From a virus (Duplodnaviria; Caudoviricetes), in the IMG/VR virus record IMGVR_UViG_3300022848_000005: a stretch of 64,000 nt of DNA; one strand, given 5' to 3'. Positions 4,094 to 57,660 of the stretch are shown here, one piece after another. Position numbers and translations under genes: made by a program. Every line of letters begins with the position of its first letter. The stretch's first letter is position 1. The notes beneath the pieces were generated by a model that saw nothing but the letters and a program-made list of their open reading frames with translations, was not told the DNA's origin and searched no databases.

Positions 4094-5118
4094 TGAATAT
4101 TATACAGCAAACAGTCTTAGATAAATTGCCCTCAAAACGCAAGACAGCACCAAGTGGCTGGACTAGCTTTAATGCACAGTGCTGTACACATTTAGGCCAT
4201 AGTCAAGACACCAGAGGTAGGGGCGGTATTATAACTGCACCAGACGGTTCGATATCCTACCACTGTTTTAACTGTAATTTTAAAAGCACCTGGCGTCCAG
4301 GGTGGCATTTTAACTTCAAGTTTCGTAGACTGTTATCCTGGTTTGGGGTAGCACAGAATGATGTACAACGTTTGGTGTTTGAAGCCATGCGTATCAGAGA
4401 AGAGCTTGTTGATGTTGTTGAAGAGATTGACAAACAGCAGGAAAAAATAGAGTTCGACCCAAGGCCACTGCCTGAAGAAAGTGCAGATATTAGACAAGTT
4501 GCCACAATGATGGCATTAGATCCCAATTACGAAATAACTCAGAACTTCAGAGATGTTGTCGGCTATGCAGTTGAGCGAAAGATTAACACACAACGCTATC
4601 CTATATTTTATAGCACCAGCAGTAATGTTAATATGGATAGGCGAGTTATTATACCGTTTACCTGGCAGGACAAGATAATAGGATATACTGCAAGAGCAAT
4701 GGATCCCAGCATAAAGCCCAAGTACTTTAACAGTTATGATAGCAATTATGTATTCAATACAGATGCACAAACCAAGGACACCAAGTTTGTTATTGTGTGT
4801 GAAGGTCCTTTTGATGCAATGGCAGTTGATGGAGTTGCTATATTAAGTAATAACATAAACGACACACAGGCTGAAATAATTGATAGGTTGGGTAAACGAG
4901 TAATTGTGGTACCAGACTTTGATCGAGCAGGACAGCGTATGATACAAGACGCAATAGAATATGACTGGGAAGTTAGTTTCCCTACATGGTCAGAAACCTG
5001 TAAAGATGTTGGAGAAGCGGTACAACGATATGGTAAATTATTTGTAGTAAAAAACATCTTAGATAACGCACAGGCAAGTAAACTAAAGATTAATTTAATG
5101 CGTAAAGCAATAAAATAA
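4093..5118 (+). CDS. DNA primase (zinc finger plus TOPRIM)
   Basis: Cys/His zinc-binding N-terminus (CCTH...HCFNC), TOPRIM VCEGPFDA and PDFD. Confidence 0.85.
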   Translation: MNIIQQTVLDKLPSKRKTAPSGWTSFNAQCCTHLGHSQDTRGRGGIITAPDGSISYHCFNCNFKSTWRPGWHFNFKFRRLLSWFGVAQNDVQRLVFEAMRIREELVDVVEEIDKQQEKIEFDPRPLPEESADIRQVATMMALDPNYEITQNFRDVVGYAVERKINTQRYPIFYSTSSNVNMDRRVIIPFTWQDKIIGYTARAMDPSIKPKYFNSYDSNYVFNTDAQTKDTKFVIVCEGPFDAMAVDGVAILSNNINDTQAEIIDRLGKRVIVVPDFDRAGQRMIQDAIEYDWEVSFPTWSETCKDVGEAVQRYGKLFVVKNILDNAQASKLKINLMRKAIK

Positions 5119-6236
5119 TGGACCCAAAACAAAAGTTTTTTCTTTTTAAACAGTCACGCAATTTTTGTGCGGTGCCCTGGAACCACTTCAAAGTTGAAAT
5201 GGATGGCACAGTAAAAACCTGCGTACATGGTATGGATACGTTGGGCAACTTATCCACCGACAACATTGATAGCATTTTACATAGCCCTGTAGTAAAGGAT
5301 ATAAGACAAACTCTGTATCAGGATAAGCCGCATAAAAATTGCACACATTGCACCAGACACGAGGACGAAAGTGATCACAAGTACCTAAGAGATCTTTACA
5401 ATCCCATGTTTAAGTTTGAGGACATAGATTACAGTGACGATTCTGCATTCCAACTAAGAGCAGTTGATCTACATTGGAGTTCTACCTGTAACTTAAAGTG
5501 TATTACGTGTTGGGCAAATCAGAGTAGCAGTATTGCACAGGAACAGGGCAAACCAGTCTTACATACACCCAATGACCAAGCAGACAAGATAATAGACATA
5601 ATTGTCGACAACCAGCACAACCTTAAAGAAATATACCTGAGTGGCGGTGAGCCTACCCTCATTAAGCATAATCAAAGACTGTTAAAGCGTTTGGACAAGA
5701 ATATAGATTGTCAGTTTAGAATTAACACTAACATGATGTTCGAACAAGACAATGCCATAATAAACGAAATATTAAAGTTTAAAAATGTATTGTTTACAAT
5801 AAGTGCTGACTCTACAGCAGATAGGTTTAATTATATTAGACGTGGGGCAGACTGGCAGAAGTTCCTAACAAATCTAACATGGTTACAGCAGAGTCACGCT
5901 AAGTTTAGGTTAAACAGTGTGTTCTTCATAGCAAGTGCGTTGTATCTGACAGACTGTCAGAAGTTTTTCCACAATAATTTTGGTATAACAGATTTTACAA
6001 TTAACCAAGTCCTCATGGACCATACTGTTATTAAGTGTCGCAACCTATCACACTCCCTTAAAGAAGATTGTAAAACTAAAATACTTGCACATAAACAGGA
6101 GTTTGCTGATAATGCAAACTTATGTAATGAGTTAGATGCTTGCCTACAAGAATTAAATTGTGATAAGGCAGATGACTATACATCTTTCTTTACACAGTTT
6201 CCAGGCAACTGGCAAGAGGTATTTCCTGAACTATGA
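5118..6236 (+). CDS. Radical SAM protein with N-terminal SPASM/twitch-like Cys cluster
   Basis: CNLKCITC (CxxxCxxC), SGGEP, N-terminal CAVPW...C...CTHC. Confidence 0.85.
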   Translation: MDPKQKFFLFKQSRNFCAVPWNHFKVEMDGTVKTCVHGMDTLGNLSTDNIDSILHSPVVKDIRQTLYQDKPHKNCTHCTRHEDESDHKYLRDLYNPMFKFEDIDYSDDSAFQLRAVDLHWSSTCNLKCITCWANQSSSIAQEQGKPVLHTPNDQADKIIDIIVDNQHNLKEIYLSGGEPTLIKHNQRLLKRLDKNIDCQFRINTNMMFEQDNAIINEILKFKNVLFTISADSTADRFNYIRRGADWQKFLTNLTWLQQSHAKFRLNSVFFIASALYLTDCQKFFHNNFGITDFTINQVLMDHTVIKCRNLSHSLKEDCKTKILAHKQEFADNANLCNELDACLQELNCDKADDYTSFFTQFPGNWQEVFPEL

Positions 6237-6879: not shown

Positions 6880-8250
6880 ATGAAGAATTACAGTGCAGAT
6901 TTACAAAAACTATTTTTAGAAATGATGATGGCAGACGCTCAAATGTTTGTGCGTGTTGGAAACATCTTTAACCCTGCTAACTTTGATAGAAGTCTACAGG
7001 ACACAGCCAGGTTTATACAAGAGTACACAGACAAACACAAGTCTCTGCCTAATAAAGATCAGGTAAAAGCAACATCTGGTGTAGAGCTTAAAGACGTTGG
7101 TGAAGTGCAGGAAGCACAACATGACTGGTTTCTAGAAGAATTTGAAGGATTTAGTCGCAGACAAGAACTTGAACGTGCCATACTGAAGGCGGCTGACTAC
7201 TTGGAAAAAGGTGACTATGATCCTGTTGAGAAATTAATTAAAGACGCAGTACAAATTAGTTTAACAAAAGATCTAGGCATAGACTATTTTGAGGATCCTA
7301 AGGCTAGACTTAGTTTACTAAGGGACAACAACGGACAAGTAAGTACAGGCTGGCCCACACTGGATAAGAAACTGTTTGGTGGCTTTAACAAAGGCGAGTT
7401 AAACATCTTTGCTGGTGGCAGTGGTAGTGGTAAGAGTTTGTTTATGCAAAACCTTGCTATTAACTGGATTATACAAGGACTTAACGGGGTATTCCTAACA
7501 CTAGAACTTAGTGAAGGCTTGTGTGCTATGCGTATAGACAGCATGTTGTCTAATGTCAGCACACGTGAAATATTTAAAGAGATCGATACTGTGGAGATGA
7601 AGATCAAAATGGTTGGTAAGAAGTCAGGTAGCCTACGCATCAAGTACATGCCGGCACAGAGCAACGTTAATCAAATTAGAGCGTACTTGAAAGAACTGGA
7701 AGTACAGACAGGACAAAAAGCAGACTTTATCATGGTAGACTATTTGGACTTGGTTATGCCAGTTAGTGCAAAGGTAAGTCCAAGTGACTTGTTTGTTAAA
7801 GACAAGTATGTGAGTGAAGAACTACGTAATCTAGCAAAAGAATTTAACATACTGATGGTAACCGCATCACAATTAAATCGCAGTGCGGTTGAAGAAATAG
7901 AATTTGATCATAGCCACATATCTGGTGGGTTAAGCAAAATAAATACTGCTGACAACGTGTTTGGTATATTTACGTCAAGAGCAATGCGTGAACGTGGACG
8001 ATATCAGATACAGTTAATGAAGACTCGTAGTTCTAGTGGTGTTGGACAAAAGATTGATTTAGAGTACAACATGGAGACGCTGAGAATTATCGACGCAGGT
8101 GAAGAAGAGCAGACTAACCAACGACAATCGGGTATTATGAATCAAATAAAAACAAAATCATCAACAACTACAGAAGCACCCAAGGTCACAGCTCAAGTCG
8201 ATAGTTCTAAGCTCAAGTCTATGTTGGCTGGGCTGAGGAAAGTTGAATAA
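6880..8250 (+). CDS. dnaB: Replicative DNA helicase (DnaB/T4 gp41-like)
   Basis: Walker A GGSGSGKS, VDYLD, TASQLNR, MKTRSS. Confidence 0.9.
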   Translation: MKNYSADLQKLFLEMMMADAQMFVRVGNIFNPANFDRSLQDTARFIQEYTDKHKSLPNKDQVKATSGVELKDVGEVQEAQHDWFLEEFEGFSRRQELERAILKAADYLEKGDYDPVEKLIKDAVQISLTKDLGIDYFEDPKARLSLLRDNNGQVSTGWPTLDKKLFGGFNKGELNIFAGGSGSGKSLFMQNLAINWIIQGLNGVFLTLELSEGLCAMRIDSMLSNVSTREIFKEIDTVEMKIKMVGKKSGSLRIKYMPAQSNVNQIRAYLKELEVQTGQKADFIMVDYLDLVMPVSAKVSPSDLFVKDKYVSEELRNLAKEFNILMVTASQLNRSAVEEIEFDHSHISGGLSKINTADNVFGIFTSRAMRERGRYQIQLMKTRSSSGVGQKIDLEYNMETLRIIDAGEEEQTNQRQSGIMNQIKTKSSTTTEAPKVTAQVDSSKLKSMLAGLRKVE

Positions 8251-9955: not shown

Positions 9956-9963
9956 TATAAATA
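9956..9963 (+). promoter_or_regulatory. T4-late-promoter-like TATAAATA
   Basis: Exact match to the T4 gp55 consensus upstream of the 9985-14019 gene run. Confidence 0.55.
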
Positions 9964-9984: not shown

Positions 9985-10233
9985 GTGCAAAAGAAAACAA
10001 GAAGCCTATTAGATGAATTAGATATCTTTGTTTCACAAAGAGATAATAATGTTCTAATAGAGAACAGAGCCCACAATGTTATTCTAAGTGCGATAAACTT
10101 GCTACAGCACATAAAAGAAACTTATGACTCAGAGACTGCCGCAAACTTAGAAAAACGTTTGCTAAACAGCATACGCACCGGGGAACCAGAAAAGTTTACC
10201 AGGGGTATAAGGAGAGCCAAACGTGAAGGTTAA
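9985..10233 (+). CDS. Hypothetical protein
   Basis: 82-aa ORF, GTG start, follows the TATAAATA motif. Confidence 0.6.
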   Translation: MQKKTRSLLDELDIFVSQRDNNVLIENRAHNVILSAINLLQHIKETYDSETAANLEKRLLNSIRTGEPEKFTRGIRRAKREG

Positions 10234-10492
10234 CGAGGTTGTTACAGAAGGCTGGAAAGATCTAGCATCACAGTTTGCTGGCGGACTTGCTGGAAAATCC
10301 GCTGACACTGTTAATTATGAAAAACAGAAAGCAGGAACAGAAAATGCAGAAAAAGAAAGAATACAAAAAGCGGCTAGAGAAAAAGGCATGTCAGTGCCAC
10401 AATACCTAGATTGGCTTAAAAAACAAGCAACAGCACAGGGTAGTAGTATTAGTCTTGACACTAATATTTCTGCCGCAAAAAAGGCGCATTAA
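10223..10492 (+). CDS. Putative internal head protein
   Basis: N-terminus MKVNEVVTE; shares AGGLAGKSA with the next gene. Confidence 0.5.
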   Translation: MKVNEVVTEGWKDLASQFAGGLAGKSADTVNYEKQKAGTENAEKERIQKAAREKGMSVPQYLDWLKKQATAQGSSISLDTNISAAKKAH

Positions 10493-11082
10493 TGAAAGTT
10501 AAAGAATTATTTGAGGCAGGGTTGTGGGCACAAATCGCAGGTGGTTTGGCAGGCAAAAGTGCTGGGCAAATTGATCGTGAAGAGCGATCCTATACAAAAC
10601 AACAAAAAGCAAACCAAACTGCACAACAGTCAGTAACTAATACGCCTGTACAACAAAAAGCAAACCAAACTGCACAACAGTCTCCTGCACAACTTAATGC
10701 AAATTTAGATGCTAAAATAGCGTATGCAAAGTCTAGAGGCTGGATTGGATCGAGGCCTACTAATCAGGATAAAGCATATCTTGACAGTGTGGATGTTGAT
10801 ATAGATCCAAACAGATTTAACAACGTTGATCCTAAAACATTTTTTATACCACACCAACCTCTTCATGTAAAATCCGCCCTGGACGAATTTTCTGTATCAA
10901 CAGTTGAACTTAACAGGGCGTTGGGATTTAAGCATCAAGAAGAATTTAAAGGATACTCTACTATAACACTTACACCAGCAGGTTGGTACTCTGTAAACAG
11001 ACAAGCATATATTAACCCTAACAGTAAAGCACAGACTGTGATTGACATGTTCTATAATAGAAGCAAGGGCGGAACACGATGA
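10492..11082 (+). CDS. Putative internal head protein with Q-rich repeat
   Basis: N-terminus MKVKELFE; QQKANQTAQQS occurs twice. Confidence 0.5.
   Translation: MKVKELFEAGLWAQIAGGLAGKSAGQIDREERSYTKQQKANQTAQQSVTNTPVQQKANQTAQQSPAQLNANLDAKIAYAKSRGWIGSRPTNQDKAYLDSVDVDIDPNRFNNVDPKTFFIPHQPLHVKSALDEFSVSTVELNRALGFKHQEEFKGYSTITLTPAGWYSVNRQAYINPNSKAQTVIDMFYNRSKGGTR
10599..10682 (+). repeat. 33-bp perfect direct repeat, two copies, period 51
   Basis: acaacaaaaagcaaaccaaactgcacaacagtc at 10599-10631 and 10650-10682. Confidence 0.9.
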
Positions 11083-11777
11083 TATCAGAAGGTGGTAAAG
11101 CAATTCCTTCAGCACTGCCAGTTACACTTAAGAACTTTGATGCTGTTAAGAAGAACTTACAAAAGGCGTTACCACTTGGTATAGACATGTACGCTATTGG
11201 TTCAGCAGGCAAGAAAGAAGTTAGCAGTGACGTTGATGTTCTTATTGATGCCGAACAGTTACTAGACATATTTCCGTTAGATGACTTAAAACTAGCTAGA
11301 CAAGCATTGGAAAAACATTTCCAAAACATGGGGCTAGAAGCAAAACGCACTGGTGTTAGTATACACGTTGGCGTACCTAACGGTGAAGGCGGTGTGGCAC
11401 AAGTAGACTTAATGGCAGTTAATAATGCACAAGCGGCACAGCCATTGCATACACATGATTATACTGATCCCAACATGAAAGGTGGGACACTACATGCTAT
11501 GTGGGCAGACCTAGCAAACATGAGTGCGACACCTGAAGCAGAAAGTTTAATGATGAGTCCATACAAAGGACTAGTTAACAGGGAAACTAAGGAATTGGTC
11601 TCCAACAACAAAGATGAAATAGCAAAGATTATTATTGGTCCCAGTGCCACAGCAGACGACATGGGCAATCCCACAAAGTTACTAAAGGCATTGGAGCCCT
11701 ATCCTAAAAAGTACGACGCAATTAAAAACAAATACATGGCAACAGAGTGGAATCAAAAATGGCAGAACCTACAGTAG
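11079..11777 (+). CDS. Pol-beta superfamily nucleotidyltransferase
   Basis: IGSAGKKEVSSDVDV (GS...DxD) plus a distal QVDLM Asp. Confidence 0.7.
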   Translation: MISEGGKAIPSALPVTLKNFDAVKKNLQKALPLGIDMYAIGSAGKKEVSSDVDVLIDAEQLLDIFPLDDLKLARQALEKHFQNMGLEAKRTGVSIHVGVPNGEGGVAQVDLMAVNNAQAAQPLHTHDYTDPNMKGGTLHAMWADLANMSATPEAESLMMSPYKGLVNRETKELVSNNKDEIAKIIIGPSATADDMGNPTKLLKALEPYPKKYDAIKNKYMATEWNQKWQNLQ

Positions 11778-12874
11778 GCAGAAAGTATCAACACATTGAA
11801 GATCTGGTATTCACTAACGGCAGTCGTGGTGGACTACATGCTGTTGGGCGTCTTAAAGACATGCAAGAGTCCGGCGGTATAGAAATAAAGTGGGACGGAA
11901 TGCCTGTAGTGTACTGGGGAGAAGTTCACGGTAAGTTTACGGTTCTGATGAAGAATGCTCTTGCATACCTTAAGCGTGGTGTGAGAGAGGTTGGTGCAGG
12001 TATCCCTACACTGGCAACAGGACCGCAGGATGTAACAGACTTCGTAGCAGGTACAGGTAAGATTAAACCAGAACAACAAGATGCTAGACAGGCACTTGCT
12101 AAAGACATGGGTGCATTATGGCCTTACTTACGTAACGCAAGTCCTAAAAAGGGACTAGTGGAAGGTGGGTTATTGTTCCATCCAGGAAAGCCTGCTGTGT
12201 TAAACAAAGCAACAAACGAATACGAGTTCCAACCTAATGTAACAAAGTTTCATATTCCAGCAGACAGCAATTTAGGCAAGCGTATTGCTACTGCAACAAT
12301 CATGGTAGCGATTACTGGATACCAAGAAGACATAATGTCGCCTGAAGGTCGTCTGGATAATGTAGAGAAGTTAAGCACACCGGATGTCATTGTACAAGGC
12401 ACAGCGTATACTGAAGAAAAACCTAAACTTGACGACAAAGGGTTAGGTATTGTGGAACGTTATATTAGCAGTAATGCCAGTAAAATAGATGACTTTATTG
12501 GTGGCCAGTCAGGATTAAAAAGACCAGGCGATGTGTTATATAAGTTCTACAATCAGTCGCTTAGAATACCAGGTGCAAAGAAAGGTTTTACAGACTGGGT
12601 ACAAAATAACTTAAGTGCTGAGCAAGCACAAAAAGTTTTAAACCATCCTGGATTAGACGCTACGCTTAACGCAGTTGAAATGATAACAGGACAAAAGAAT
12701 CTGGTATTACAGCAGTTAGGGTCAGCAACACACGGTGATATCAGACAGACTAAACCAGAAGGTTATGTGCAAGCTCATCCAGGTAAAGAGTTTAAGGCTG
12801 ACTTACCGGGACAGTTTATTAAAATGATTGATCAACCGACTTGGACGCCTAACAGAGGCTTTAAAGATAAGTAG
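11747..12874 (+). CDS. ATP-dependent RNA/DNA ligase-fold protein
   Basis: EIKWDG (motif I, KxDG), LVEG (III), PEGYV (IV), FIKMID (V). Confidence 0.6.
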   Translation: MESKMAEPTVGRKYQHIEDLVFTNGSRGGLHAVGRLKDMQESGGIEIKWDGMPVVYWGEVHGKFTVLMKNALAYLKRGVREVGAGIPTLATGPQDVTDFVAGTGKIKPEQQDARQALAKDMGALWPYLRNASPKKGLVEGGLLFHPGKPAVLNKATNEYEFQPNVTKFHIPADSNLGKRIATATIMVAITGYQEDIMSPEGRLDNVEKLSTPDVIVQGTAYTEEKPKLDDKGLGIVERYISSNASKIDDFIGGQSGLKRPGDVLYKFYNQSLRIPGAKKGFTDWVQNNLSAEQAQKVLNHPGLDATLNAVEMITGQKNLVLQQLGSATHGDIRQTKPEGYVQAHPGKEFKADLPGQFIKMIDQPTWTPNRGFKDK

Positions 12875-12878
12875 TACT

Positions 12879-13469
12879 ATGAGAGCAAAAGAAATATTAA
12901 GAGAAGCACCAGAACAACGTGTAGCCTTTAGTTGGGGTAGGTTTCAGCCACCACACTTAGGACACGCAGAGGTGTTTAAGAAACTGGAGTCAGTAGGAAA
13001 CTATGGTTTCTGGATAGGCACGGGACAAACAACCGATCCTAAAAAGAATCCATTGCAGTATGCAGACAAAGTTGCTATACTGAAACAGATGTTTCCTGGG
13101 CACAGCGACAACATATTATCTGACCCCAGTATTAAGACAGTATACAATGCTATTGTAGCAATATATAACAAATACGATCCCAAAGAAGCAGAGAACATTA
13201 CTTTAGTTTTTGTTGGTGATCCAGAAAGAATTAACGACTTCGTTGGTAGTTTTAAAAAGTTTAATGGTGTTGAAGCACGTCATGGTTATTACAAGTTTAA
13301 AGATGTAACCGGATTTGCTAACACCGATAAAGGTGATGTGAGAGCAACAGATGTTCGAGGTGCAGTGCAGGCTAAGGACATGACAAAATTTCAACAACTT
13401 ACTGGTTTAACTGGTGAGTTGGCTCAGACAGTTTTTAACAAGGTAGCAAAGGGAATGGGCGTTGTTTGA
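12879..13469 (+). CDS. HIGH-family cytidylyl/adenylyltransferase-like protein
   Basis: WGRFQPPHLGH, KNPL, VGDPER, RATDVR; start MRAKEILRE. Confidence 0.8.
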   Translation: MRAKEILREAPEQRVAFSWGRFQPPHLGHAEVFKKLESVGNYGFWIGTGQTTDPKKNPLQYADKVAILKQMFPGHSDNILSDPSIKTVYNAIVAIYNKYDPKEAENITLVFVGDPERINDFVGSFKKFNGVEARHGYYKFKDVTGFANTDKGDVRATDVRGAVQAKDMTKFQQLTGLTGELAQTVFNKVAKGMGVV

Positions 13470-14019
13470 CTTTATTCAAGAATTAAATGAAAGCAGGATT
13501 TTTAGGTACGAACACGACTTCGAGGGGATGTCTGCTCGTGACCTAGGTCATCTACTGTATCAAATTGTTATGATGTTGGAAATTATTAGACATTATGACA
13601 AAAACTGGGTTAAACAGTATGCTAAGAAGACATATCAGTTTGGGGGGTTTCCAGGAATGAAGGCTGCCCAAACTGATATGTACAATCTTATAAGTGTTGT
13701 TAATAACCAAGACAAATATGACACGTATTTAAAGACTGACAAGTCAGTGTATGTTCCTGACTTTGGCATCAAACGTTATTTGTTAGACATTATTAACGAT
13801 AATAGACACATCACCAGAGACAGAGCACTATTCACTAAACTAGAAGACACATTAAAAGTACAGGATAGTGCTCTTAAAAACATCAGACGCTTAGTAAGTT
13901 ACTGGGACAACTACAGTGACGCACAAAAGAAAACAACAGTAGTAAATCTTAGACAGAACGTTCGTTCTGACACTCCTTATATTGACGTATACTGGTCAAA
14001 ATTTAAAGAACTAGCATAA
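13462..14019 (+). CDS. Hypothetical protein
   Basis: 185-aa ORF overlapping the upstream stop. Confidence 0.6.
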   Translation: MFDFIQELNESRIFRYEHDFEGMSARDLGHLLYQIVMMLEIIRHYDKNWVKQYAKKTYQFGGFPGMKAAQTDMYNLISVVNNQDKYDTYLKTDKSVYVPDFGIKRYLLDIINDNRHITRDRALFTKLEDTLKVQDSALKNIRRLVSYWDNYSDAQKKTTVVNLRQNVRSDTPYIDVYWSKFKELA

Positions 14020-14070: not shown

Positions 14071-14529
14071 ATGGCAGACGTAACAAGAGTACATGGTAAC
14101 GCACATGGTGTGGTTCATCAGGACAGAGGCCTCTCTGGTAGTGGAGCATTAAGTGGTGACGAGTTAGTAGTTAACATTGGTAGAAGTGCTAAGTTCTTTG
14201 GAATCGTTATTTACAACGCATCTGGATCAGGCGGCGCAGGTAATGTCGATCTACAAAACGAATTAGACGCTGGCGAATCAGTTGAAGCAATTCTTAAAGC
14301 AGTTGCGGCATCTACCGTTTCTAGCGTACAATACGGTGGTGAGATTTTAGCATATCAGGTACAAGACGATGCTAACGGTCAAATCAGCGTTATGGTTGCT
14401 GGTTCAAATTGGACAGGCGCAACATTGCAAACAGCAATTCGTGCATTAGGCGCAACAGTTGGTGGCAATTCAAAAGACGTAACAGGCACACTCGTAACAG
14501 ATACAGGCATGAAGTTAGCACTATCATAA
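14071..14529 (+). CDS. Putative virion structural protein (paralog A)
   Basis: Preceded by ATAAATA (14016) and the SD aaggag; G/A/T/V-rich; MADVTRVHG. Confidence 0.6.
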   Translation: MADVTRVHGNAHGVVHQDRGLSGSGALSGDELVVNIGRSAKFFGIVIYNASGSGGAGNVDLQNELDAGESVEAILKAVAASTVSSVQYGGEILAYQVQDDANGQISVMVAGSNWTGATLQTAIRALGATVGGNSKDVTGTLVTDTGMKLALS

Positions 14530-14590: not shown

Positions 14591-14598
14591 TATAAATA
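14591..14598 (+). promoter_or_regulatory. T4-late-promoter-like TATAAATA
   Basis: Exact motif between the terminator and the SD of 14629. Confidence 0.6.
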
Positions 14599-14628: not shown

Positions 14629-15060
14629 ATGGCAGATTTAACAAGAGTACACGGTAGCCCATCAGGTAACGTGTCATATGACAGATCAGTAGCAAACGTT
14701 GGTAACATCTCAGCAGACGAACTAGTAGATGTTGTAGGTCGTAAGTTAGACTTTTTCAAAATTGTTATTCAAAACGGTTCTAGTACTAACCAAGACTTGC
14801 GTTCAGAAATGGGACCTAACGAGTGTGTAGAAAAAGTTTTACAAATTATCCAAAACTACACAGACGGTACTAACGAAGGAACTGCAACTCTCGTAGCATA
14901 TCAGGTAGAAGGCGACGACACAGGACAAATCAGTGTTGCAGTTGAAGGTTCTAGCTGGACAGCGTCAGCATTGCAGGCGTCCATTCGTGCTACTACAACA
15001 TTGAACTCAATCAATGTTACAGGTACAGACGTTACAGCACCTGGGTTAGATTTAGCATAA
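14629..15060 (+). CDS. Putative virion structural protein (paralog B)
   Basis: MADLTRVHG; shares AYQV.xD..GQISV.V.GS.WT with 14071. Confidence 0.6.
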   Translation: MADLTRVHGSPSGNVSYDRSVANVGNISADELVDVVGRKLDFFKIVIQNGSSTNQDLRSEMGPNECVEKVLQIIQNYTDGTNEGTATLVAYQVEGDDTGQISVAVEGSSWTASALQASIRATTTLNSINVTGTDVTAPGLDLA

Positions 15061-15081
15061 TACTAAATTAACACTATAAAT

Positions 15082-15112
15082 AAAAAGGCATACATTTTGT
15101 GTGCCTTTTTTT
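15082..15112. terminator. Rho-independent terminator
   Basis: aaaaaggcatac-atttt-gtgtgcc followed by a T-tract. Confidence 0.7.
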
Positions 15113-49614: not shown

Positions 49615-51120
49615 ATGTTAAACAAAGTACTGTTCCTAGGAACAAACGACACCAGTACAGATCAATTAGTAACAGACATAGCCAAAAACAACAACACAAC
49701 TAATTATGGGTTGGTGTCTGACAGCAAATTTGTACCAGACAATTCGGGATACTATCATACCACTATAGTAGATATCTGGGCGGGTGGTATTGTTGAGGTT
49801 GCTAAGAACTTTGATAGGATTGTGTTGCTAGACCAACCTGTTGCAGTATGGAGCCATTGGAAAGCTCTACTAAGCACATATAAAATCATGGTAGAGTTAG
49901 AGAAGTTAGCGCATACCACAGAATTTAGAGATAACGAAAATATAAAAAGCATACAGTTTATGTGGGACCTGTTACAGGATAACAAGGCATTTTGTACCTA
50001 TCCCTGGATGCACCTATTAGAAGAATACGGTGATGTGTTAATATGCAGTAAAAGTAAAATACCAATTAAGAAACTTGAAGACCTTGGTGATTGGCGCACT
50101 GATCCTGAGTTTGTGGAGATCAGGAACAAACTGAAAAGTGGCGAAAGAATACATAACTGTAACTTGTGTTATAAGGAAGAAGAGCTAGGCTTTGTTAGTA
50201 CTAGAGTTCATGAAAGCATGGACTGGGCAGTAAAAATGAATATACAAAGTATGGAAGATTTGGAAGTAGCCCTGCCTACATATTACGAAGTTAGACCTAG
50301 TAACAAGTGTAACTTGCAATGTAGGATGTGCTGTCCTGAAAACAGTCACTTGATTGAGAAAGAATTTAAAGAAATAAAGTTTGAATATCCCAGTTATAAA
50401 AAACAATGGGGCAACTACGAACATATTGATGTAGAGAACTTGTTGCCAGGTACTAGGATATACAGCACAGGCGGTGAGCCAACTATCATACCAGAGTTCT
50501 ATAACTTCTTAGACAAATGTATTACACTAGGAAGAACAGACTTAGATATCACACTAAACACAAATGGACAAAAAGTAAATGACAAGTTAATTAATCTTAT
50601 GCACAAGTTTGATGAGGTAAATTTTAGTTTTAGTATTGATGGGTATGGTAAAGTAAACGATTACATACGTTGGAACAGTGTTTGGGACAAAACCGTTGCC
50701 AATGCTAAACGACTTGGAGCAGAAGGTTTCTATGTAAGTTTAGAATGTATACCTAGTCCTTGGAACATTACTAACTTACATTTACTTTATGAGTTTTATG
50801 ACAGAGAGTTTCCAGGCAGTACAGTTTTCCTACAGCAGGTATACTGGCCAGACAAAACCGTTAATGTGTTTAATCATCCATTTCCAGAGTTGGTAGTAGA
50901 CAGTTTAACACGAGTAACAAAAACAAATGCATATTACACAGACGCAAGAGACAACAAAAGTATAATAGACTCGTTGCTAGAGTATTATAGTAACGATCCC
51001 AAGACAGACTTGCACTGGCTAGGTAAATTTTATGAGTTTAACGACTTGCTAGATAAGTCAAGAAATGTTAAACTAGTTGATTATGTTCCTGAATTAGAAG
51101 AGGGCAGAAAATTATTATGA
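49615..51120 (+). CDS. Radical SAM protein with extra N-terminal domain
   Basis: CTYPW..., CNLC, CNLQCRMC, TGGEP. Confidence 0.85.
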   Translation: MLNKVLFLGTNDTSTDQLVTDIAKNNNTTNYGLVSDSKFVPDNSGYYHTTIVDIWAGGIVEVAKNFDRIVLLDQPVAVWSHWKALLSTYKIMVELEKLAHTTEFRDNENIKSIQFMWDLLQDNKAFCTYPWMHLLEEYGDVLICSKSKIPIKKLEDLGDWRTDPEFVEIRNKLKSGERIHNCNLCYKEEELGFVSTRVHESMDWAVKMNIQSMEDLEVALPTYYEVRPSNKCNLQCRMCCPENSHLIEKEFKEIKFEYPSYKKQWGNYEHIDVENLLPGTRIYSTGGEPTIIPEFYNFLDKCITLGRTDLDITLNTNGQKVNDKLINLMHKFDEVNFSFSIDGYGKVNDYIRWNSVWDKTVANAKRLGAEGFYVSLECIPSPWNITNLHLLYEFYDREFPGSTVFLQQVYWPDKTVNVFNHPFPELVVDSLTRVTKTNAYYTDARDNKSIIDSLLEYYSNDPKTDLHWLGKFYEFNDLLDKSRNVKLVDYVPELEEGRKLL

Positions 51121-55779: not shown

Positions 55780-56402
55780 ACTTAACCTTTATTATAGGTA
55801 ACGGTCAAAGTCGAAGTAACATCAGTATAGATAGACTCAGAGACTTTGGTCCAGTCTGGGGGTGTAATAGGATATACAAGGACTGGCATGTAGATAACCT
55901 TGTTGCTATTGATCAAGCCCAAGTAGAACTTATTCTCAGAGACGAGTACCATACTAAAGCAAACGTCTATACTAGAAAAAGATGGTCACCGTTGTACAAT
56001 GGGGTGCCTGGGGTAAATTACATTCCTGAATTTAAAGAAGAAGGAACAAACAAGTGGCAGAAGCAGTGGCATTGGAACTCAGGACCACTTGCCATGTTCG
56101 TAGCATGTGAGCAAGGCGCAGAAATACTGTGTATGTTTGGATTTGATTTTTACGGTGTTGCTGGCAAGTCCAACAACGTTTACAAGGGATCACCAGGCTA
56201 TGACAAAGCAGATCACAGAGCAGTTGATCCAGGCTTTTGGATACAGCAATTTGTTCAATTAGCTCAATGGTACCCTGATACGCAATTTGTGCAGGTACAG
56301 CCCGCTGGATGGCAAGTACCAGCTGCCTGGCACGGTGTAAGCAATCTGTCGATAGATACCCCTGAAACTTTTTTTGATACCTTAGTAGCAACTGATGCCT
56401 GA
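55776..56402 (+). CDS. MptE/DUF115-like (glycosyltransferase-type fold) protein
   Basis: IIGNGQSR, WGCNR, NSG..A, FGFDFY. Confidence 0.5.
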   Translation: MNLTFIIGNGQSRSNISIDRLRDFGPVWGCNRIYKDWHVDNLVAIDQAQVELILRDEYHTKANVYTRKRWSPLYNGVPGVNYIPEFKEEGTNKWQKQWHWNSGPLAMFVACEQGAEILCMFGFDFYGVAGKSNNVYKGSPGYDKADHRAVDPGFWIQQFVQLAQWYPDTQFVQVQPAGWQVPAAWHGVSNLSIDTPETFFDTLVATDA

Positions 56403-57660
56403 TAAAGATATATTCTGCAATGTACCTTGGTACCAGGGGCATGTGTTCTGGGACGGTACCTATGGACACTGTTGTTTTTCCAACAAAGATACCACACACG
56501 GATATAATGTAAAAACTCATACAGTAAAACAATGGATAGAGTCCGACAGCATGGTGGACTTTAAGAAAGAACTACTGGGTAGTAAAAAAAGCAATAGGTG
56601 TCATGGCTGTTATCTAGAGGAAGATCAAGGACATACAAGTAAACGTCAGAACGAAAACTTAAAAAGTGCTATATGGTCAACTAAGTTTGATCAGAGTTTT
56701 AACGAGGCTCATACTAGAGACAAGTTCTTAAACCTAGACCACAGTATGTACAGAGAGTGGCATATAGACTTAGGCAATGAGTGTAACTTAGCCTGTAAGA
56801 TGTGCAACTCTGATGCTAGTAGCAAAATAGAGACACTGTACAGACGTTGGGGAATGCCTGTAGAGTACACAAGCAAGAAGCTCTGGATTAACGATCCTAG
56901 AGCAGACCAATTTATAGAACAAATATGCACTACCACTAAACTAAAGCGTATACACATAATGGGAGGAGAACCTCTTATACAACCAAAGTTTAAACATTTA
57001 CTAAAGACACTTAGTGAACGCAGACCAGACATCAGTTTTAGTTTTGTAAGTAATGCAACTAAATTTGACAGCAGTATACTAGAATATTTACAAAAATTTA
57101 GTAGTGTAGATGTCGAACTTAGTATAGAAACAACTGATCCAGTAAACGATTATATCAGACAAGGCAGTCGAACACAGGATGTAATTAAAGTAATAGAGCA
57201 GTGGGTAGAGCATAGATCAGAAAACTTTAATATAATTTTGCGTCCTACTCCAAGTATCTTAAGTGTTAGTAGGTATAAGAGCCTGTTAGATTTTGCATAT
57301 AAACATAGACTTATTGTTATGAGTGTTATACTCAGTGATCCAGGCTATTTACGAATAAGCCTACTTCCTAAACAGTACAGACTATCTATTATAAAAGAGT
57401 TACGACAATGGAGCGACAATATAACTGTAGACATCAACGAACAAGTTGGTAACAGAGATGCTACTAGGTGGCAAGCACAACTAAAACAGGAGTGCGAGGG
57501 TATAATTAACTGTTTAGAACAGGAGCACAAACCAGGCAACGAAAAAGAATTAATAACATGGTTGCAACGTTGGGACAATGAGTATAAACTTAATGTGTTA
57601 GACTACTTGCCGGAGTTCGCAGATTTCTTTCGAGAACATGGATACAAAATACCAAACTGA
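56395..57660 (+). CDS. Radical SAM protein
   Basis: FCNVPW...CC, CHGC, CNLACKMC, MGGEP. Confidence 0.85.
   Translation: MPDKDIFCNVPWYQGHVFWDGTYGHCCFSNKDTTHGYNVKTHTVKQWIESDSMVDFKKELLGSKKSNRCHGCYLEEDQGHTSKRQNENLKSAIWSTKFDQSFNEAHTRDKFLNLDHSMYREWHIDLGNECNLACKMCNSDASSKIETLYRRWGMPVEYTSKKLWINDPRADQFIEQICTTTKLKRIHIMGGEPLIQPKFKHLLKTLSERRPDISFSFVSNATKFDSSILEYLQKFSSVDVELSIETTDPVNDYIRQGSRTQDVIKVIEQWVEHRSENFNIILRPTPSILSVSRYKSLLDFAYKHRLIVMSVILSDPGYLRISLLPKQYRLSIIKELRQWSDNITVDINEQVGNRDATRWQAQLKQECEGIINCLEQEHKPGNEKELITWLQRWDNEYKLNVLDYLPEFADFFREHGYKIPN

Follow-up and report, generated by a model that had tools for sequence, protein, structure and literature searches.

Why would a bacteriophage keep three unrelated nucleotidyltransferase folds side by side? 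The question is raised by a 64,000-nucleotide stretch of viral DNA (IMG/VR record IMGVR_UViG_3300022848_000005; 'the window' below means this whole stretch), in which three consecutive genes, here termed N, L and H, encode a polymerase-like, a ligase-like and a HIGH-motif protein, respectively. A preliminary description regarded the trio as one anti-defence pathway, either repairing tRNA or restoring NAD, that might be delivered from the capsid. The comparative data presented here instead lead us to propose that the N-L-H module acts on broken nucleic acid, most likely nicks or short gaps in the phage's own DNA, a reading to which we give about an even chance. The three open reading frames (ORFs) are present exactly as first described, tightly packed and translationally coupled, and their motifs occupy conserved or invariant positions in the respective families. 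The features are as follows:

11079..11777, + strand: gene N, 232 aa, starting at an ATG that shares bases with the TGA of the preceding gene (ATGA)
11199-11204, 11229-11237 and 11400-11408, + strand: catalytic motifs GS, DVD and QVD of N
11759..12874, + strand: gene L, 371 aa from ATG 11759, which lies behind a Shine-Dalgarno-like GAGTGG; the alternative GTG 11747 would give 375 aa
11792-11806, 11888-11899, 12227-12238, 12758-12769 and 12815-12829, + strand: HIEDL, motif I (KWDG), FQPN, motif IV (EGYV) and the motif V lysine (FIKMI) of L
12879..13469, + strand: gene H, 196 aa from ATG 12879, 4 nt after the L stop codon; the frame is open from TTG 12828
12936-12965 and 13341-13358, + strand: the HxGH motif GRFQPPHLGH and the ISxTxxR-type RATDVR of H

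Predicted folds of the N, L and H proteins

The N protein contains the elements that define a Pol-beta-type palm, hG[GS] and a carboxylate triad comprising DxD and a third Asp. In an alignment of 124 relatives G41, D51, D53 and Q108 are invariant, and D110 is present in at least 90% of the sequences. A Foldseek search with the AlphaFold2 (AF2) model of N, which was built with 124 diverse homologues and has a pLDDT of 93.5, had Pol lambda and Pol mu alone as its leading matches (E about 2e-6 over about 200 columns). In a VIA-align structure search spanning 48,161 chains the eight best matches were all family-X polymerases (Z 10.0-10.4), aligned over 159-178 residues and covering model residues 1-208, that is, both palm and thumb. 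Pol beta scored 10.4, Thermus PolX 10.3, TdT 10.2 and Pol X of African swine fever virus (ASFV) 10.0, with 159/176 residues aligned. Matches outside family X (terminal uridylyltransferases (TUTases), CD-NTases, MenT toxins and poly(A) polymerases) were restricted to a palm of ∼95 residues (16-135) and had Z values of at most 8.7. Because the PolX matches reach the thumb while those to other nucleotidyltransferases stop at the palm, N is predicted to be a minimal palm-plus-thumb PolX-like protein rather than a generic Pol-beta nucleotidyltransferase. The model begins at the palm and contains neither the 8-kDa 5'-deoxyribose phosphate (dRP)-lyase domain nor the fingers, both of which are also missing from ASFV Pol X, and as modelled N fits only this minimal form of the family. 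The Pol-beta fold in the preliminary description is therefore retained, whereas its suggestion of an end-adding tRNA enzyme is not consistent with a minimal family-X palm and thumb. No match to N was found in Pfam, PHROG or NCBIfam, and a single-sequence search against solved structures gave nothing useful. In a related 260-kb contig (L089) the match to N (G001:C1:248717-249487) contains one TGA.

The L protein belongs to Pfam family DUF6267 (PF19782; E 2e-16), and a literature search found no paper that mentions this family. K48, D50, E338, G339 and K359 do not vary across 62 aligned relatives, at least 90% of which also share W49 and G51; motifs IV (EGhh) and V (hhKh) come in order after motif I (KxDG). 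VEGGLL and FQPN are tentatively assigned as motifs III and IIIa, and an N-terminal H-x-E-D motif is also invariant. The AF2 model of L (pLDDT 91.7) displays two helical insertions, at about residues 69-130 and 230-325. Foldseek found no significant match to this model in the PDB (best E 0.045), and single-sequence and profile searches of L against solved structures produced nothing useful or noise. In VIA-align, however, the top 19 matches of a wide search, and all of the top 50 in a second look, were RNA or DNA ligases, the alignments covering 160-203 residues. NgrRnl led (Z 7.0, 181 residues aligned), followed by TbREL1 (6.5), Trl1 (5.9), T4 Rnl1 (5.7) and Rnl2 (5.5), compared with 5.0-5.5 for DNA ligases. 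Although these Z values are unsafe alone, in combination with the invariant and ordered KxDG, EG and motif V lysine they assign the modelled L protein to the covalent nucleotidyltransferase superfamily, consistent with the ligase fold first proposed for it.

Motif V of L is located 16 residues from the C terminus and the H domain follows directly in fusion proteins (see below). As motif V sits at the C-terminal end, L has no oligonucleotide-binding (OB) domain with its motif VI, a feature in which it resembles RNA ligases more than classical DNA ligases. As is predicted for L, the nick-sealing RNA ligases among the structural matches (NgrRnl/Rnl5, Trypanosoma brucei REL1 and T4 Rnl2; 171-182 residues) have a nucleotidyltransferase domain with the motif I lysine and no OB domain. 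L differs from them in its two helical insertions, its invariant H-x-E-D and a lack of detectable sequence similarity. A 65-member viral cluster in the ESM Atlas fuses DUF6267 to a Cu/Zn superoxide dismutase domain.

The structural neighbours of L bring RNA repair into consideration as the function of the module. L would then be an RNA ligase resealing host-cleaved tRNA or other RNA, N would restore or tail 3' ends and H would supply an activated nucleotide. The nearest solved structures to L are the RNA ligases listed above, which L matches in having no OB domain, and family X includes template-independent terminal transferases such as TdT. By contrast, N has the template-reading thumb of PolX and not the body and neck domains of CCA-adding enzymes or TUTases, while the Z values of RNA and DNA ligases against L differ by less than 2. 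Furthermore, the breaks made by anticodon nucleases, which leave a 2',3'-cyclic phosphate and a 5'-OH, call for both a kinase and a phosphatase, domains that were found neither as conserved companions in 80 related loci (see below) nor in the operon of the window. We therefore consider RNA repair in general unlikely. The T4-style tRNA repair put forward in the preliminary description is likewise unlikely, as the module is not accompanied by a kinase or phosphatase for end healing, and the flanking ORFs contain no such family.

Translation of H most likely begins at ATG 12879, which encodes M18 of the long ORF. The protein exceeds the cut-off of Pfam PF01467 (CTP_transf_like; 33.9 bits versus 21), matches PHROG 3041 and 395, both 'cytidyltransferase', and contains two motifs that are invariant across the family. 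The HIGH-type transferase of the preliminary description is thus upheld, and by sequence H is a HIGH-motif nucleotidyltransferase of the cyanophage 'cytidyltransferase' type. In the majority of N-L-H loci H belongs to a divergent subfamily, marked by GWGRGMGHKGH and missed by Pfam, while the window's H is in the cyanophage-type subfamily; the two are homologous (cyanophage H against the majority type, E 3e-14). In several relatives H has long, variable C-terminal extensions containing LysM and VanY peptidase, HD or weak SprT-like domains (L018:4856-7660, L087:6125-9130 and L044:4248-8954), whereas in the window it is a bare domain of 196 aa.

It is possible to view H as a nicotinamide mononucleotide (NMN) adenylyltransferase (NMNAT) that rebuilds NAD+ in the face of NAD-depleting defences, with N and L occupied in unrelated jobs. 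GRFQPPHLGH is an HxGH motif of the archaeal NMNAT/NadM type, the best matches of H among solved structures and NCBIfam models are NMNATs (PDB 1f9a, E 1e-4; PRK01153, E 1e-5), and cyanophage papers annotate H homologues as NMNAT (PMC9602691, PMC12801897). The sequence likeness is, however, weak and confined to the HIGH-motif region; 1f9a matches residues 34-109 only, and the NMNAT models of NCBIfam score 25 bits over residues 33-89 only, far below their equivalog cut-offs of 127-181. A profile search of H against solved structures returned noise, and the majority-type H of N-L-H loci is not recognised by Pfam. The fusion of H to L and N in many phages would also be unexplained if H were an independent metabolic enzyme. 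The partners expected of the NAD-reconstitution pathways NARP1 (Adps and Namat) and NARP2 (Nampt and NMNAT/Nudix) were not found among the other genes of the operon, nor are any conserved beside the module in relatives. Given the lack of a linked partner enzyme and the fusion of H with the other two proteins, a described NAD-reconstitution pathway, which the preliminary description had invoked, is unlikely, and we regard NAD+ supply as the function of H in this wider sense as very unlikely.

Linkage and fusion of the module across relatives

The preliminary description suggested that co-occurrence across phage genomes would be informative. A hidden Markov model search of 80 IMG/VR loci encoding L relatives (47-60% identical), together with six metagenome loci, revealed the order N-L-H wherever the locus extended far enough to display it; contigs ending too soon to show the module were left out of the count. 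The sole exception was L009, in which N was not detected. All fusion states were observed: three separate genes, an N-L fusion followed by H, N followed by an L-H fusion, and a single N-L-H polypeptide of 887-1569 aa. N is found at the N terminus in 66/120 of the closest L homologues. Representatives clustered at 50% identity display, in addition, H-N-L, L-N, H-N and N-H arrangements, with H-N-L, L-N and N-L-H occurring as single polypeptides. Only N, L and H from the window's operon are conserved in the relatives' loci, where no flanking gene is kept. On these sequence data the three genes are associated far more than chance would allow and, because gene order is kept and every fusion state occurs, they are judged to be one conserved functional unit. 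This supports the part of the preliminary description that treated the trio as one pathway, while an anti-defence role is no more than a possibility. A prediction of the N, L and H complex with H as the partner, run with no controls, scored 0.00 and gives no verdict either way.

Within the window, L overlaps the end of N by 19-31 nt, and ATG 11759 is the more likely start of L than GTG 11747. As the two proteins are fused in relatives, a programmed frameshift was considered, but the overlap contains no slippery heptamer and a Shine-Dalgarno-like site precedes ATG 11759. N and L are therefore read, from the sequence, as separate, translationally coupled genes.

Cultured phages carry only part of the module. 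Among cultured phage records, 466 contain L and 532 contain H, most of them from cyanophages. Both genes occur in the same taxa, namely Synechococcus and Prochlorococcus myophages, the Methylophilales phage Melnitz and pelagiphages. The two genes are adjacent in the cultured phages that were inspected. A 591-aa protein of S-PM2 (BFVD A0A0M6VVW4), which is named for a cytidyltransferase-like domain, matches the fold of L, which suggests that it is an L-H fusion. H homologues encoded directly after a DUF6267 gene include S-SZBM1_140, S-SCSM1 ORF91 and S-CREM2 ORF154 (29-30% identity; E 6e-13 and 7e-10). Such cyanomyophage H proteins are longer than that of the window, at about 360 aa, and their phages have no N. 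Indeed N had no match in 50,697 GenBank phage records, and a 287-aa gene preceding L in S-8S53, examined as a possible counterpart, is not an N homologue. The absence of N from cultured phages leads to the view that L-H is the old core, which N joined in a clade of uncultured giant phages.

Leader sequences, virion proteins and operon context

The preliminary description raised the possibility that the three enzymes are delivered from the capsid, a view made plausible by the sequences that precede each domain and by virion proteomics of cyanophages. The T4 prohead protease cuts after Glu. Counted over distinct ORFs, a T4-prohead-protease-type [ILVM]-x-E occurs directly before GGN in 71/74 N ORFs (background 1%), within 12 aa before GRKYQH in 71/75 L ORFs (background 10%) and within 22 aa before the HIGH motif in 71/79 H ORFs (background 19%). 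Stand-alone L proteins start with M-[KR]-I-x-E-L-[IL]-x-E followed by AAAP, while N-L fusions start with MLLRELF and continue to [IL]-x-E followed by GGN; the junction between the two fused domains retains P-[IV]-N-E followed by AAAP. In the window N starts with MISE followed by GG, L with MAE followed by PTVGRK and H with MRAKEILRE followed by AP. An N-terminal capsid-targeting sequence is used by all internal head proteins of T4 (PMC5694885, PMC3012670), and T4 Alt is cut at ITE-6 and LTE-619 (PMC5694885). The module resembles the internal proteins and Alt of T4, which are processed by gp21 and injected, in its putative short N-terminal leaders ending in [IL]-x-E. It differs from this cargo in that its products would be nucleic-acid enzymes whose processing and packaging are deduced from sequence only, and in that the leaders of N and L in the window comprise just 3-4 residues.

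Independent support comes from mass spectrometry, which has detected homologues of H in CsCl-purified virions of S-SZBM1 (PMC9146016), S-SCSM1 (PMC9602691) and S-CREM2 (PMC10665884). The S-SZBM1 protein (SSZBM1_140) is encoded directly after the L gene of that phage, SSZBM1_141. Virion detection concerns cyanophage H homologues only, not L or N, and the authors of the virion proteomics note that abundant proteins may be carried over. Taken together, these data make it plausible, at a little under an even chance, that the module is packaged in the head and injected.

Injection is also compatible with a quite different activity, in which the proteins are effectors that modify host proteins by nucleotidylation, or that synthesise or degrade signalling nucleotides, in the service of counter-defence or takeover rather than repair. 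Pol-beta-fold nucleotidyltransferases of phage polyvalent proteins are predicted to be protein modifiers (PMC5512222). The domains fused to H in relatives, LysM and VanY, HD and SprT-like, are typical of injected multi-domain phage proteins according to the same survey, which does not describe the N-L-H module (PMC5512222). CD-NTases and MenT toxins are, in addition, among the palm-only matches of N (Z 6-8). N nevertheless matches PolX over the thumb too, well above these palm-only matches, L retains all the ligase motifs, and the N-L fusion parallels known repair enzymes in which a polymerase is joined to a ligase (PMC5537341). The probability of an effector function is accordingly slight.

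The genomic setting of the module comprises the following features:

6880-8250: DnaB/gp41-like helicase, with N-L-H 3 kb beyond it
9956..9963, + strand: TATAAATA, the T4 late-promoter consensus and candidate promoter of the block below, followed by GGAG and GTG 9985
9985-14019, + strand: tightly packed seven-gene block that includes N, L and H

All that favours the candidate promoter is where it lies, 22 nt upstream of a start codon that has a Shine-Dalgarno site. A further reading of the module draws on this setting and on cultured relatives. Here L, aided by H, would be the missing DNA ligase of T4-like phages that have no gp30-type ligase; it would act during replication or recombination and not from the virion, with N as a later gap-filling addition. 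In cyanomyophages the L-H pair adjoins gp41 helicase, UvsX and MazG, much as the window's module follows a helicase gene, and the number of records with L and H, drawn from the same taxa, is near-core behaviour. Neither PF01068 nor PF01653, the canonical ligase families, was found in four related viral contigs, which are fragments 18-74% complete; these include the 260-kb relative, estimated to be 74% complete. The relatives searched are, however, incomplete genomes, and absence of a canonical ligase is therefore not established. The presence of H homologues in virions (PMC9146016, PMC9602691, PMC10665884), the protease-type sites ahead of each domain and the late-type promoter ahead of the window's operon also argue against a purely replicative role, which we consider rather improbable.

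The two genes directly upstream of N (10223-10492 and 10492-11082) have starts, (M)KVNEVVTE followed by GW and MKVKELFE followed by AG, that resemble paralogous leaders of the same T4 capsid-targeting-like type as those proposed for the module, and both encode the motif AGGLAGKSA. They have no Pfam or PHROG match and are not conserved in the related loci. After the operon come two paralogous small proteins (14071-14529 and 14629-15060), both starting MAD.TRVHG; TATAAATA recurs at 14591-14598, 31 nt ahead of the second of these genes, and again at 15075-15082 ahead of the next gene.

As a whole the window looks like a piece of a very large phage genome, that of an uncultured salt-lake giant phage. 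Nearly all its genes are on the + strand, and close relatives of the genes studied here occur on contigs of 200-360 kb. It also encodes several radical-SAM proteins, tail-spike-like proteins and AAA+ proteins; three separate radical-SAM-domain proteins occur within the 64 kb (5118-6236, 49615-51120 and 56395-57660; PHROG 14086). A DNA-level search of the stretch against GenBank phages gave no match. At least 20 salt-lake metagenome runs of 2017-2018 contain the stretch fully or mostly, and the phage thus recurs in that habitat. All of the runs listed are DNA metagenomes from salt lakes, with no RNA run among them, and several may be source samples.

Proposed repair of nicks and gaps

From the folds, motifs, linkage and fusions described above we infer a substrate, cofactor, timing and mode of packaging for the module, all of which are to be read conditionally. 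In the first step N, as a stripped-down family-X polymerase like ASFV Pol X, would add one or a few nucleotides, perhaps ribonucleotides, at a 3'-OH. L, nucleotidylated on its motif I lysine (K48), would then seal the resulting nick. H would perform a coupled third nucleotidyl transfer; its fusion to both L and N suggests that it serves the same reaction. Our best guesses for this step are that H makes or regenerates a dinucleotide cofactor of L (NMN + ATP -> NAD+), or that it handles a 5'-phosphate or 5'-adenylated end. The enzymes could be packed in the head and enter the cell along with the genome, allowing repair to start before any phage gene is expressed. Such loading is considered possible because the operon lies behind the T4-late-type TATAAATA and the T4-prohead-protease-type [ILVM]-x-E precedes each domain.

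Filling by N and sealing by L is the most economical reading because a PolX joined to a ligase is a known viral arrangement for filling gaps and sealing nicks. ASFV Pol X works with the ASFV ligase in viral base-excision repair. Like N-L, the ASFV pair couples a minimal palm-plus-thumb PolX (174 aa) to a partner of the ligase superfamily in a large DNA virus. The similarity does not extend far in sequence, with about 16% identity between ASFV Pol X and N, which has no Pfam match. The phage module also differs in that L is not a classical OB-containing DNA ligase, a third, HIGH-motif enzyme is present, no apurinic/apyrimidinic (AP) endonuclease is linked, the host is bacterial and the proteins may be packaged in the head. 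In PgVPolX of Phaeocystis globosa virus 16T, a PolX is fused to an NAD+-dependent DNA ligase, both domains being in one polypeptide as they are in most relatives of N and L (PMC5537341). Polymerisation, removal of dRP and NAD+-dependent ligation have all been demonstrated for this fusion, an example of one polypeptide that both fills gaps and seals them (PMC5537341). It comprises, however, a complete Pol beta core, including the 8-kDa dRP-lyase domain, together with a LigA-type ligase, while the phage module has a minimal polymerase and a DUF6267 protein, encoded in the window by split genes.

Bacterial LigD, in which a polymerase, a ligase and a phosphoesterase act in non-homologous end joining, offers a third comparison as it also joins an end-filling polymerase to a ligase. 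The LigD polymerase favours ribonucleoside triphosphates, and nicks with a 3' ribonucleotide are the preferred substrate of the ligase; this may serve as a model for a PolX that acts with an RNA-ligase-like sealer. Both Pol mu and bacterial LigD insert ribonucleotides. These precedents make attractive, by analogy, a 'ribo-patch' variant of the proposed repair in which N adds a ribonucleoside monophosphate and L, which resembles nick-sealing RNA ligases that need a 3' ribonucleotide, seals the product. LigD differs from the module in having a polymerase of the archaeo-eukaryotic primase (AEP) fold and a ligase with an OB domain, and no Ku partner was seen here.

Several points weigh against the repair of DNA nicks and gaps by a packaged module. 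The activities of N, L and H are all predictions. The best Z value for L, 7.0, is within the range that VIA-align calls common and below its safe level, and the nearest structural relatives of L are RNA ligases rather than DNA ligases. When the N profile was searched against PDB sequences it reached a TUTase at E 0.003 and Pol lambda only at E 0.74, and the PDB, NCBIfam and profile searches yielded no substrate assignment for H. Nor does any linked AP endonuclease, glycosylase or lyase accompany the module. Cyanomyophages have L and H but not N, which is absent from the complete genomes of S-8S53 and S-CRM01, and the core pair thus needs no polymerase. With respect to packaging, the sequences in which [ILVM]-x-E was counted are mutually related and not independent events, the conserved element could be part of the folds, and L is not listed in the virion proteome of S-SZBM1. 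The promoter consensus TATAAATA has 8 matches in the window compared with 7.7 expected by chance. As it is almost absent from the relatives' loci, with none near the module there, the late-promoter argument is confined to the window.

The repair of breaks by a polymerase X and a ligase is of a known kind; what is new is the ligase family, a minimal PolX in bacteriophages, an obligatory third nucleotidyltransferase and possible delivery in the head. In its fullest form the proposal would be a virion-delivered DNA repair kit. A mini-PolX and a ligase of a new OB-less family, packed through T4-type leaders and separated by the prohead protease, would be injected, and would fill and seal nicks caused by sunlight, packaging or host nucleases before phage gene expression. 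L would be NAD+-dependent and H would, as an NMNAT, turn the NMN that L releases back into NAD+, sustaining ligation in cells undergoing NAD+ depletion, and the L-H half would constitute a near-universal, unrecognised ligation system of marine cyanomyophages. That all of these elements hold together is improbable. If the proteins are packaged, we know of no earlier case of a phage that delivers a polymerase-ligase repair set together with its DNA.

Roughly 470-530 genomes of cultured phages, among them almost every T4-like cyanophage, encode DUF6267 and its HIGH-motif partner, which also occur in several hundred related metagenomic proteins and viral contigs. The L-H half is directly testable since it is carried by cultured cyanophages with virion proteomes. 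Confirmation of the function would give a name to two paired, near-core genes of the most abundant myoviruses in the ocean, add a new OB-less branch to the ligase superfamily and place a family-X polymerase in bacteriophages. It would also bear on how phages survive UV damage in surface water and host defences that nick DNA or deplete NAD.

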